Shown: positions 49,587-54,482, counted from the first letter of the stretch. The stretch: DNA of 64,000 nucleotides from an uncultured Myxococcales bacterium (GCA_903896545.1 CAITYF010000204.1:21143-85142), one strand, 5' to 3'. The notes: a model not told the origin generated them from the sequence alone. Translations and numbers: made by a program.

Positions 49587-52500
49587 CTACGGAATCGGCT
49601 GGCCGTCTTTGTCGAGCAGGTCGACGTCAAGGGCGAGCGCGCGCAGTTCCTTCAAGAGCACGTTGAACGACTCGGGCAGGCCGGGTTCCAGCTTGCCTTC
49701 GCCACGCACGATGCTCTCGTACATGCGCGTGCGGCCGATCACGTCGTCGGACTTGACGGTCAGGAATTCCTGCAGCGCGTAGGACGCACCGTAGGCCTTG
49801 AGCGCCCACACTTCCATTTCGCCGAGACGCTGGCCACCGAACTGCGCCTTACCACCCAGCGGCTGCTGTGTGACGAGCGAGTACGGACCAATCGAACGGG
49901 CGTGGATCTTGTCGTCGACCAAGTGGTGGAGCTTGAGGACGTACATGACGCCGACGGTGACCTTCTGGTCAAACGCCTCGCCACTGCGGCCATCAAACAA
50001 CTCCGTCTGACCGGTCGTCTCGACGCCAGCACGCTGCAGCAACTCGCGGATTTCCGCTTCCGTCGCACCGTCGAACACCGGCGAGGCCAAGCGAATGCCC
50101 TCGTTGTTGTCGTCGATGAAGCGCAGCAGCTCCTCGTCCGTCAGCGACTCGACCAGCTTGTCGATGTCCGGCGCCCCAAAGACGTGCTTCACGGTCTTGC
50201 GGATCTCGTCCGTGGACGCGCCCGCGAGCACCGCATCGTGCAGCTTCAGGCCGAGGCAGCGCGCCGCCCAACCCAAGTGCGTCTCCAGAATCTGACCCAC
50301 GTTCATACGAGACGGCACGCCCAACGGGTTCAGCACCACGTCGACCGGGCGACCATCCGGCAGGAACGGCATGTCTTCTTCCGCGAGGATGCGGGACACA
50401 ACGCCCTTATTACCGTGACGACCCGCCATCTTGTCGCCGACCTGCAGCTTGCGCTTGATCGCGACGTAGACCTTGACCATCTTGATGACGCCCGGGGGCA
50501 GCTCATCGCCGCGCACGAAGCGCTTGATCTTCTCTTCAAAGTAGAAGCGCGTCTGGTTCGCGTTGTCTTCCAGGTGGTCGAGCAACTGGCCCAGCTGCGT
50601 CTGCAGGTCCTTGTCGTTCACGCGGATGTCGCGCCACACGTTCGGAACCTTGAAGCGATCGCCGTCGTCGTACAGCTTGTGCGGCAGGCTGGCGAGCTCT
50701 TCCTCGTTCAGATCCGTACCCTTGGCAAACACGACTTCACCTTGGTCATTGACGACCTTGGAGTTGGTCTTCTGACCCGCGAGGATGCGCGCCGCTTTCT
50801 CGTACGTGGAGTCGGCGAGGATCTGCACCTCGTCGCCCATGTCCTTCAGCAGCGTCGACTTCTCGTCTTCCTCAATTTCGAGCGTGCGCTCGTCCTTGGC
50901 TTCCGACTTGCGCGTGAACACCTTGGCGTTGATGACCGTACCGACGACGCCCGGCGGAACACGCAGCGACGTGTCACGCACATCGCCCGCCTTCTCACCG
51001 AAGATCGCGCGGAGCAGCTTCTCTTCCGGGCTGAGCTGCGTCTCGCCTTTCGGCGTGATCTTGCCCACCAGAATGTCGCCCGTCTTCACTTCGGCGCCGA
51101 TGCGGATGATGCCGCTGACGTCGATGTCCTTCAGCGCCTCTTCCGAGACGTTCGGGATGTCGCGCGTGATGTCTTCTTTGCCAAGCTTGGTGTCGCGGGC
51201 AACGCACTCGAATTCTTCGATGTGAATCGAGGTGAAGAGGTCTTCCTTGATCACTTTTTCAGAAATCAGGATCGAGTCTTCGTAGTTGTAGCCGCCCCAC
51301 GGCATGAACGCGACCACGACGTTGCGACCGAGCGCGAGCTCGCCGCGATCCGTCGCCGGACCGTCGGCAATCACGTCGCCTTCGGTGATGTGGTCGCCAC
51401 GGCGCACGATCGGACGCTGATTGACGCACGTGCTCTGGTTGGAGCGCGTGTACTTGACCAGCTTGTAGATGTCCGTCGATGCATTCGGATCGTCCGCATC
51501 GCCATCGCGCTTGACCACGATGCGCGTGGAATCCACGTTCACCACGGTGCCGTTGTGCTTGGCCACGACCGTCACACCGGAGTCCGCCGCGACCGTGCGC
51601 TCAAGCGCCGTGCCGATCAGCGGCGACGTCGTGCGGAGCAGCGGCACCGCCTGACGTTGCATGTTCGAGCCCATCAACGCGCGGTTCGCGTCGTCGTTCT
51701 CAAGGAACGGGATCAGCGACGCCGCGACCGACACCAACTGGTTCGGCGACACGTCCATCAGCTCGACGTCCTTCGGCGCGACCTGCTTGAATTCGCCGTT
51801 GACGCGCGCGTCAAGGAACGTACCCGAGAGGTGACCGTTGGCATCCAGCTTGGCGTTTGCCTGGCAGATGATGTGCTCTTCTTCTTCCAGCGCAGAGTAG
51901 TACTCGTAGTTGTCCTGCGGCGTGCCGTCGACCACTTCACGGTACGGCGTCTCGATGAAGCCGTACTCGTTGACGCGGGCGTAGGTCGCCAACGACGCGA
52001 TCAGACCGATGTTCGGACCTTCCGGCGTCTCAATCGGGCAGATACGGCCATAGTGCGTCGGATGCACGTCGCGGACTTCAAAGCCCGCGCGATCGCGCGT
52101 CAGGCCGCCCGGACCGAGGGCCGAAAGACGACGCTTGTGCGTGACTTCCGACAGCGGGTTGGTCTGGTCCATGAACTGCGAAAGCTGCGACGAACCGAAG
52201 TACTCGCGAACAACCGCGGACATCGGCTTGGCGTTAATCAGCTCGTGCGGCATCGAGGTCTCGATGTCCTGCGCGATACTCATCTTTTCCTTGATCGCCC
52301 GCTCCATGCGCACCAAACCGACGCGGCACTGGTTCTCCATGAGCTCACCCACCGCGCGAACGCGGCGATTGCCCAGGTGATCGATGTCGTCGATGTTGTA
52401 GCCCGGACGGCCGTTCTTCAACGCCAGCAGGTACTGAATCGTGCGGAGGATGTCCGCGCGGGTCAGCGTGAAGCACGGCGCCACCGGGGCCAGGCCCAGG

Positions 52501-54482
52501 CGATTGCGCAGTTCTTCATTGCCCGACACTTCGATCTTGGACTGACGGTTGCCGCGCACCGGCATGATGAGCACCGTGCGCATTTCCGACAGACCAACGG
52601 TCAGGAGACCGGTCGACACGCGGATTTCCGGCTGGAACACGCCGCCCGGCAGGTCGAGGCGCTGACGCAGGACGTCGTGCGCTTCCACTGCGAGCTCCGC
52701 GCCCTTGTCGGTCGCCTTGATCAGCAGCTCGCCGTTGGAATCCAGCGACACGTTGATGAACGGGCTGTCCACCCACGCCGCCTGCAACGCCGCGGCCAGC
52801 TCGCTCGGAAGCGCCTGCTGCGGGTTGGCGAACGCCTTCTGGTCGATCTTCCACGAAGCGTGCTGTTCCTTGCCGTCCGCACCGCGCACGAGGAAGCCCA
52901 ACGTCCAGTCGGTCTGCTTGACCGTCTCGGGACGCGTCAGGTCCGCCACGCTGAACACACCCGACAGGTGCGCCATCAGCTCGTTCGGCGACACGCGCTT
53001 CATGTCCGGGAAGGTCTTCGCGTCCAGCTTGACCAGGAAGGACTTCACCTTCTGGCCCGACGTGTACATCGAGAATTCCAAGCGCCAGTTGCGGTAATCG
53101 TTGCCCGGGCTCGACAGGTCAAAAGACCGATCGCGGCGCATCGAGACCGTTTCCAGACGAACCAAGCCCTGCTTCTTGAGCGCCATGAGCGCTTTGCGAC
53201 GCGCGAACTTGTACTCGACCTTCATACGGCCGACGTCGGACAGATCGTAACGCTGCTCGTTGAAGAACAGGTTGTTGAAGTAGTTCTTCGCCTGGTTGGC
53301 CGACGGCGGATCACCCGGACGCAAGTGGTGATAGATGTCTTCGATCGCCTGCTCGGTCGTCGGCTGACGCTTGCGCTTCTGGACGTCTTCCACGTCCTTG
53401 GCCAGCGTGTCACGCAGGTACGGACCCACGTTCAGGCGGTCGATGTAGAGCACCTCAAACGTACTCACGTTGCGGTCAAGCAGCTTCTTGATGTCGTTCG
53501 CGGCCAGCTCGTGGTTCGCCTCGAACAGCACCTCACCCGTCTCCTGATCGATGACGTCAGTCGCGATGACCTTGCCTTCGATCTGGTCCGCCGGCATCTC
53601 CAGCTCGTTGATGCCCGCATCGCGCAAAATCTTGATGACGCGCGGCGTGAACTTGCGGTTGCGGTGAAGCAGCAGCGTGCCGTTGGTCGGGTGCGTGATG
53701 TCGTCCGTCGTGCGCTGACCGTCCAACAGGTCAAAGTTGAGCGAACGCATCGCGCGGAGCTTCTCGCCCGGAATCAGGCGAATCGTCTCAATGTCGTAGT
53801 AGTAGTTGAGCAGGTCCTCGGTCGAGTAGCCCAACGCGCGCAGCAGCACGGTCGCATGCAGCTTGCGGCGGCGGTCGATGCGGACGTACAGCGTGTCCTT
53901 GTGGTCGAACTCGAAGTCCAGCCACGAGCCACGGTACGGGATGATGCGCGCCGAGTAGATGCGCTTGCCCGACGCGTGGGTCTTGCCCTTGTCGTGTTCA
54001 AACAGCACGCCCGGCGAGCGGTGCAACTGCGACACGATGACGCGCTCGGAGCCGTTGATGATGAAGGTGCCGGCGTCCGTCATCAGCGGAATTTCGCCGA
54101 AGTAGACTTCCTGTTCCTTCACGTCACGCACGGACTGGATGCCTGTCTCGCTCACGTCGAACACGACGAGGCGGATGAGCACCTTGATCGGGCTGGCGAA
54201 CGTCATGCCACGGGCGCGGCACTCGAGCACGTCGTATTTCGGCTCTTCCAGGTGGTACGACACGAACTCGAGGCTCGCGGTCTTGTTGAAGTCCTGGATC
54301 GGGAACACGGAAGAAAAGATCGCCTGCAGGCCGACGCTCTCCCGCTGGGGAGCGGGCACGTTGCGCTGGAGGAATTTGTCGTACGACTGGCGCTGAACAT
54401 GGATCAGGTCGGGGACCTTGACCACGCGGTTGATGCGGGAGAACGATTTGCGGACGCGGAGGTCCATCGCGGTGCGAGCCAT
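49587..54482 (-). CDS. rpoB: RNA polymerase beta subunit (1631 aa, with a large insertion)
   Basis: [50 protein letters not shown]. Confidence 0.99.

Follow-up and report, generated by a model that had tools for sequence, protein, structure and literature searches.

A twice-duplicated lineage-specific insert in the beta2 lobe of RNA polymerase from an uncultured Myxococcota order

The stretch of DNA analysed here (64,000 nucleotides, referred to as the window) originates from an uncultured Myxococcales bacterium (GCA_903896545.1 CAITYF010000204.1:21143-85142) and contains an rpoB gene, encoding the beta subunit of RNA polymerase (RNAP), with a large additional segment in the beta2 lobe. This segment is a genuine, ancient, order-wide and selectively maintained lineage-specific insertion in the lobe of a housekeeping enzyme. 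By its sequence and its predicted topology the insert appears to be unrelated to the known insert families, and its role is most likely that of a surface docking or regulatory appendage, as judged by analogy. A Pfam scan identified all six Rpb2 domains in the open reading frame (ORF), and a sequence search showed that the ORF matches every bacterial RNAP beta chain of the PDB (E=0). The gene is located in the canonical secE-nusG-rplK-rplA-rplJ-(rplL)-rpoB-rpoC cluster, is present in a single copy and is the sole lobe-domain locus across the window's own 6.76-Mb genome. Because of the domains of the ORF, the canonical cluster and the single lobe-domain locus, the insert can be assigned to the housekeeping RpoB.

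The insert is flanked by a conserved block of 16 residues at RpoB residues 411-426 and by a downstream block starting at residue 673 (coordinates of all features are listed in Table 1). The loop that carries it is located between GRxKxxxK and the (L/I)TxxDI helix, after the RYDLxxVGRxK block of the beta2 lobe. The best relative in the PDB, 7ye1_C (1356 amino acids, aa), covers residues 8-425 and 673-1622 of the query, with about 11 residues at this position compared to 247 in the query. In 12 other families of the same class the equivalent loop consists of 10 residues (18 in two of them), E. coli-type beta subunits likewise have a loop of only about 10-18 residues, and the net length gain over the relatives amounts to about 228-236 aa. 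A first-pass annotation, made from the sequence of the window alone, had reported about 235 extra residues in RpoB. Alignments with PDB chains and with the sister families confirmed that this insertion is real, large and located in the beta lobe, with 246 aa (27 kDa) between the flanks. The span reported at that time, 52497-53204, was correct at the N-terminal edge but covers residues 427-662 only, and the C-terminal edge lies 30 nucleotides (nt) further. This C-terminal edge is uncertain by about 20 residues, as the Pfam lobe model PF04561 restarts at about residue 652. The GC content is slightly raised across the insert (0.665-0.675 compared to about 0.62).

In a word-indexed search the insert was recovered in 33 RpoB proteins, each about 1630 aa long (54-95% identity), and its length is nearly invariant across these homologues (244-252 aa). 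To cover whole genomes, a profile of the insert alone was used, which found the insert in all 25 genomes of the window's family (14 genera), with one copy each, and in none of 16 genomes that represent other families of the class. Throughout the order, which consists of one family, the insert was detected in 34 of 37 genomes; the three genomes without a match are only 58-77% complete. A sample of the phylum contained 29 insert-bearing genomes among 401, all within the window's family. The search of Myxococcota metagenome-assembled genomes (MAGs) that had been proposed with the first-pass annotation thus showed that the insert is restricted, among the genomes searched, to the order of the window. 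The insert is a clean molecular synapomorphy, being found in 24/24 high-quality genomes of the order and in 0/372 other Myxococcota genomes, and can serve to mark this uncultured freshwater order taxonomically. The source MAGs are uncultured Myxococcales or Myxococcota and originate from many independent studies of lakes, deep lakes (Baikal, Tanganyika, Mendota) and groundwater.

Some of the MAG loci (L028, L030, L032, L042, L048 and L051) encode a Myxococcota-type RpoB under the titles 'Klebsiella pneumoniae' or 'uncultured Enterobacteriaceae bacterium'. On records of MAGs with the RpoB insert, such titles are evidently mislabelled or represent placeholder taxonomy.

The position of the insert in the catalogue of Lane & Darst was taken through three publications (PMC2939025, PMC8318588, PMC11515920). 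In the B. subtilis chain 6wvj_C, exact sequence matches locate RYDLANVGRYKINKKL at residues 264-279 and ITPADII from residue 376, with 96 residues between them. Since the SI1 of 6wvj_C lies between equivalent flanks, the loop carrying the insert is the SI1 loop of B. subtilis. SI1 is termed beta-i5 in the Lane & Darst nomenclature (PMC8318588), and the B. subtilis-type insertion has been classified as the 'type 3' BEAN insertion; the one of O. iheyensis comprises residues 286-370, and the lobe domain resumes at 371-407 (PMC11515920, Table 1). The insertion site is therefore not new, being already catalogued as a hot spot of the beta2 lobe. A catalogued insertion at the same site had been considered in the first-pass annotation as evidence against an undescribed domain. 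This holds for the site, which is the beta-i5 loop, but not for the content, since comparison of the insert profile with the beta-i5 of B. subtilis and S. aureus revealed no similarity (hhalign, Prob 0.2%, P 0.33).

Like the insert, the beta-i5 of Firmicutes is a surface-exposed lineage-specific appendage in the same beta2-lobe loop, which there extends from GRxKxNKK to (I/L)TxxDI. It is about 96 aa long and consists of a single BEAN module, with a conserved TGE hairpin that binds the PcrA Tudor domain (PMC8318588). In contrast, the insert described here is 246 aa long, twice internally duplicated and basic, has a different predicted topology and shows no sequence relation to beta-i5; moreover, its host lineage belongs to the Gracilicutes and has retained beta-i4 as well.

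The insert is composed of two tandem pairs of repeats, A1-A2-B1-B2, which are not nested. A1 and A2 are identical at 13 of 45 positions, and their ungapped BLOSUM62 score of 51 was reached by none of 20,000 shuffles. Using a profile of 33 sequences, hhalign aligned the two units over 44 columns (residues 465-508 versus 525-568; Prob 96.5%, E 7e-10). The second motif pair has 6 of 16 residues in common, with a score likewise reached by 0/20,000 shuffles, and extends in hhalign to a repeat of 37 columns, B1/B2 (residues 577-613 versus 628-668; Prob 95%, E 4e-8). Between the A units and the B units no relation was detectable by hhalign with the insert profile. Along the sequence the four units follow each other as A1 (466), A2 (526), B1 (596) and B2 (649). 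The internal duplication noted in the first pass is therefore significant for both pairs. The order given there (A1-A2-B2-B1, interpreted as one domain nested in a homologous copy) had to be revised, and there is no hint of a nested domain because AlphaFold2 (AF2) gives each unit as a contiguous beta-beta-alpha (bba) or beta-beta-beta-alpha (bbba) element.

The AF2 model of the whole insert, computed from an alignment of 30 sequences, has a mean predicted local distance difference test score (pLDDT) of 73, with values of 80-89 over A1, A2 and B1, and a predicted template modelling score (pTM) of 0.52. In this model the elements are arranged in the order helix, bba (A1), bba (A2), bbba (B1), (b)bbba (B2) and return helix. 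When A1-A2 was modelled alone, the pattern bba-bba was obtained again (pLDDT 81.7, pTM 0.66).

Database searches with the insert show that it is a sequence orphan. Comparison of the insert alone with PDB sequences returned only chance matches of 25 aa to designed beta-trefoils, and a Pfam scan of 14 members with E values up to 10 gave nothing consistent. Using hhalign, no similarity was found between the insert and the rest of RpoB or between the insert and an additional segment in RpoC described below. When 1.84 billion representative proteins were searched exhaustively with a HMMER profile, the matches were a fragment of 173 aa belonging to the same RpoB and two giant proteins with repeats, so that a genuine homologue outside this RpoB seems to be absent from this set. 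The giant proteins (P0036 and P0037) comprise an invasin-like one of 3943 aa, which contains Ig-like repeats, and a 1863-aa subtilase that has repeated domains. Both were considered as homologues and rejected, being matched through 7-14 weak, short, beta-hairpin-like stretches, which were judged to be repeat-summed artefacts. The absence of anything alike from Pfam, the PDB sequences and the 1.84 billion proteins agrees with the undescribed domain suggested by the first-pass annotation.

Structural comparison of the models gave a similar picture. A Foldseek search of the PDB with the whole-insert model or the A1-A2 model returned nothing at E <=1e-3, and no RNAP beta chain was present in the top 50. 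A DCoH-like beta2-alpha-beta2-alpha fold was considered for A1-A2 and rejected: the best Foldseek E value was 0.04, matches to GAF, LacZ-domain and MHC-platform structures had TM scores <=0.39, and neither DCoH nor RNAP was among them. Sandwich-barrel hybrid motif (SBHM/HABAS) repeats are typical of beta-prime inserts, whereas beta inserts are typically BBM2/BEAN (PMC2939025, PMC11515920). The initial premise that beta inserts are usually SBHM folds was thus mistaken, while the accompanying proposal that this particular insert is not SBHM is in line with the models: SBHM repeats are beta-rich and have a GD-box-like strand, each predicted unit is alpha+beta and contains a helix, no SBHM chain was found among the Foldseek matches and the Pfam scan gave no SBHM/HABAS match.

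The same protein also contains an E. coli-like beta-i4 region (SI1). An invariant TGE triad on an exposed beta-hairpin has been described as a helicase-interaction motif, with an absolutely conserved Glu (PMC8318588). The beta-i4 region keeps this PcrA/UvrD helicase-interaction hairpin, and TGEV is conserved in 31/31 family members. Since the TGE hairpin is intact in beta-i4, the helicase-interaction function does not need the new insert. The PcrA/UvrD motif was not found in the insert, in which the Glu of the B1 hairpin is not conserved across 31 members. The beta-i4 of E. coli resembles the insert in being a lineage-specific insert (LSI) of the lobe built from small alpha+beta modules that are duplicated in tandem; it moves rigidly with the lobe and is a factor-binding, allosteric element for TraR/DksA (PMC6970531, PMC2939025). 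It differs in its site, about 80 core residues upstream, and in its two BBM2 modules and acidic character, and it is unrelated to the insert by profile. The RpoB described here unites the 'type 4' architecture of Gracilicutes with a large additional module inserted at the site of 'type 3'. Architectures designated 'type 4*' (for instance in Armatimonadetes) likewise comprise beta-i4 plus additional large lineage-specific insertions (PMC11515920). Their extra domains are, however, BEAN-related and found in other phyla, and neither this Myxococcota order nor its module is described in PMC11515920.

Within the family, the mean pairwise identity of the insert is 0.62, compared to 0.80-0.92 for core segments and 0.53 for RpoB's own beta-i4. 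The parts of the insert differ from each other, with 0.80 for the linker, 0.48 for B1 and 0.72 for B2. The ratio of nonsynonymous to synonymous substitution rates (dN/dS, Nei-Gojobori) is 0.39 for the insert versus 0.12 for the 738 nt that follow downstream, showing that the insert is under purifying but relaxed selection and evolves faster than the core. Among the invariant residues of the repeats, W, F, P, G and V at core positions predominate, without a catalytic-looking cluster, which points to fold maintenance and not to catalysis. The linker (the first 38 residues) is as conserved as the core, and 19 positions within residues 427-453 are invariant. In the model of the isolated insert it nevertheless has a low pLDDT (35-59); high conservation combined with low confidence would be expected if the segment packs on something that is missing from the model. 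The insert is basic, with a net charge of +6 and an isoelectric point (pI) of 9.5. The linker has a charge of about +5 to +6 (range across the family +3 to +8), B1 has a net charge of -4, and the beta-i4-like region is acidic (net -9 in the family). The LSIs of E. coli have been described as highly acidic (PMC2939025).

A second insert was found at positions 162-327 of RpoC (1514 aa), where about 120-165 residues are additional. In the PDB alignment, query residues 161 to 328 correspond to chain residues 158 to 203. The 166-aa piece is present in 23/25 genomes of the family and in 0/16 genomes of other families. The RpoC insert is therefore order-specific with the same phyletic pattern as the RpoB insert, and the two are unrelated in sequence. 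In this order, lobe and clamp, which are the opposing pincers of the enzyme, have therefore each acquired an insert. Precedents for the RpoC insert are the actinobacterial beta-prime-i1 and the Thermus beta-prime-i2, to which it is likened by the general clamp region alone.

We consider it probable, on balance, that this genuine lineage-specific insert of the beta2 lobe acts as a docking and allosteric appendage of the lobe. Its acquisition was probably a single event in the ancestor of an uncultured Myxococcota order that is mostly freshwater, and it has been retained since. It would be an independently folded, non-catalytic appendage, located on the wall that the lobe contributes to the downstream-DNA channel. 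Anchoring to RNAP or nucleic acid could be provided by the conserved basic linker, with the variable distal repeats exposed to the solvent. Like other LSIs of the lobe, the insert would offer a lineage-specific partner a platform for docking and allostery; candidates for this partner are a factor of transcription or repair and the acidic insert in the beta-prime clamp of the same lineage. This role is suggested by analogy with two known systems: the beta-i5 of B. subtilis, which binds the PcrA Tudor domain (PMC8318588), and the beta-lobe-Si1 of E. coli, which makes up one of the walls of the DNA channel and through which TraR exerts its regulation (PMC6970531).

Several points weigh against this interpretation. 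Every organism bearing the insert is uncultured, and both partner and role are putative. The arrangement of the modules relative to each other is uncertain, as reflected in the pTM of the whole-insert model, and B2 is predicted with moderate confidence (pLDDT 59-69). In addition, selection on the insert is far more relaxed than on the core, and much of its surface is perhaps weakly constrained; the relaxed dN/dS may also fit a largely structural or neutral appendage.

The insert could instead be a very diverged array of BBM2/BEAN modules, the building block of nearly all other beta LSIs including beta-i5. It occupies a known BEAN insertion site (type 3, PMC11515920), BEAN modules are small alpha+beta units that are often found in tandem, with the beta-i4 of E. 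coli consisting of two BBM2 modules (PMC2939025), and the hairpin D-S-N-G-E-L-L of B1 in the window superficially resembles the TGE hairpin. However, BEAN/BBM2 (CATH 3.90.105.10) is defined by two antiparallel brackets, alpha1-beta2-beta3 / beta4-beta5-alpha6 (PMC11515920), and the order predicted here is bba-bba-bbba-(b)bbba and not alpha-beta-beta/beta-beta-alpha. Although many RNAP beta chains are present in the PDB, neither of the two models (pLDDT 73 and 82) retrieved one, or any BEAN chain, among its top 50 Foldseek matches. BEAN membership is associated with an HHalign probability above 70%, over the full domain, to other BEAN domains of RNAP beta and with a conserved TGD/E; the insert profile compared to RpoB residues 1-426, which include beta-i4, gave a Prob of 0.6% (P 0.1), and the comparison with beta-i5 was equally negative. 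The Glu of TGD/E is absent in about 12 of 31 members, which have G-V at this position of B1. We thus regard a BEAN array as quite unlikely. An origin from outer-domain repeats of flagellin/FliD or from phage baseplate decoration modules, captured into rpoB, is very improbable. A likeness to flagellin/FliD had been remarked on in the first-pass annotation, and Vibrio cholerae flagellins (9n8a, 9n8h, 9n8g) do lead the Foldseek list of PDB matches to the whole insert with a probability of 0.93-0.97. These matches are marginal (E >=4e-3, query TM score (TMq) 0.23-0.26, root-mean-square deviation 7.5-20 A) and fall well short of showing homology, and the best BFVD match, a baseplate-J-like protein with E 3.5e-4 and a probability of 0.97, has a TMq of 0.23. 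The A1-A2 model alone found no flagellin, no Pfam flagellin family was detected in any of the 14 members at E values up to 10, and no flagellin, FliD or baseplate protein was retrieved from the 1.84 billion proteins by the profile search. A paralogue of the insert was also not found in the window's own genome.

The two inserts might primarily act on each other. According to this explanation, the beta-lobe and beta-prime clamp inserts touch across the main channel and form a gate or latch for clamp opening, for the entry of sigma-1.1 or DNA, or for the stability of the open complex, which would make the RpoB insert primarily an intramolecular regulator and not a docking site. Their shared phyletic pattern is consistent with this, as is their location on opposite pincers, since lobe and clamp are the two walls of the channel (PMC6970531). 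Their charges are opposite, with a pI of 9.5 and a conserved basic linker in the beta insert and a pI of 4.3 in the beta-prime insert. Co-occurrence in a single ancestral lineage, however, is one evolutionary event and not statistical evidence of coupling, and we judge such a latch to be unlikely. A related proposal, in which a previously unseen fold class of LSI (two internally duplicated mini-domains, neither BEAN nor SBHM, behind a conserved basic anchor) was acquired together with the acidic beta-prime insert and forms with it a joint latch or docking site over the downstream-DNA channel, altering promoter opening or recruiting an order-specific factor, is likewise rather speculative. An artefact or a selfish element, that is mis-assembly, an unspliced intein or the recent insertion of a mobile element, is effectively refuted and has next to no probability left; apart from the slightly raised GC content, nothing in its favour was found. 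The insert is carried in frame by 33 independent MAG assemblies (57-95% identity), and because these originate from many studies mis-assembly is ruled out. The insert is order-wide and its sequence diverges with that of the host. Hint, intein or endonuclease domains were not detected by Pfam, and the junctions (KF to AR and FT to LT) do not show the intein pattern of C/S at the start and HN followed by C/S/T at the end. Direct or inverted repeats at the DNA level and target-site duplications were absent from the junctions. For practical purposes an artefact is excluded.

Lineage-specific inserts are the regions in which bacterial RNAPs differ most and where clade-specific regulators dock, such as TraR/DksA on the Si1 of E. 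coli and PcrA on the SI1 of B. subtilis. Whereas the inserts of RNAP in general and the beta-i5 site are known, new here is a large, apparently non-BEAN and unusually basic module that is paired with a beta-prime insert. According to recent surveys, beta inserts are essentially all BEAN/BBM2, and a basic, doubly duplicated orphan of 27 kDa at the beta-i5 site would be an exception. The pairing with a co-acquired insert in the beta-prime clamp would provide a natural test case for the grafting of new domains onto an essential enzyme.

Table 1. Coordinates of rpoB, its insert with the internal repeats, and the inserts for comparison. Window positions are counted from the first nucleotide of the window.
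Feature	Residues	Window positions	Strand	Remarks	Basis
rpoB (RNA polymerase beta subunit)	1631 aa	49587-54482	minus		ORF, six Rpb2 Pfam domains, PDB matches
Lineage-specific insert	RpoB 427-672 (246 aa)	52467-53204	minus	beta2 lobe, beta-i5 site	flank positions, PDB and sister-family alignment
Basic linker	RpoB 427-464	53091-53204	minus	most conserved part of the insert	
Repeat A1	RpoB 465-510	52953-53090	minus	predicted beta-beta-alpha	hhalign A1/A2, AF2 secondary structure
Repeat A2	RpoB 525-570	52773-52910	minus	predicted beta-beta-alpha	hhalign A1/A2, AF2 secondary structure
Repeat B1	RpoB 571-615	52638-52772	minus	predicted beta-beta-beta-alpha; acidic; most variable unit	hhalign B1/B2
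Repeat B2	RpoB 628-672	52467-52601	minus	predicted beta-beta-beta-alpha; returns the chain to the lobe	hhalign B1/B2, AF2
E. coli-like beta-i4 (SI1) region	RpoB about 226-345	53448-53807	minus		aligns with proteobacterial beta chains
RpoC insert	beta-prime about 162-327	48383-48880	minus	clamp region; acidic (pI 4.3)	PDB alignment gap

The alignment with the sister families revealed one further difference in this region of the lobe. Just upstream of the insert, at window positions 53300-53380 (minus strand; RpoB residues about 370-395), a few extra residues are present in comparison to ADKITTTDEAILEIYRR in the sister families. This stretch adds a second difference, likewise lineage-specific but small and basic, to this part of the lobe.

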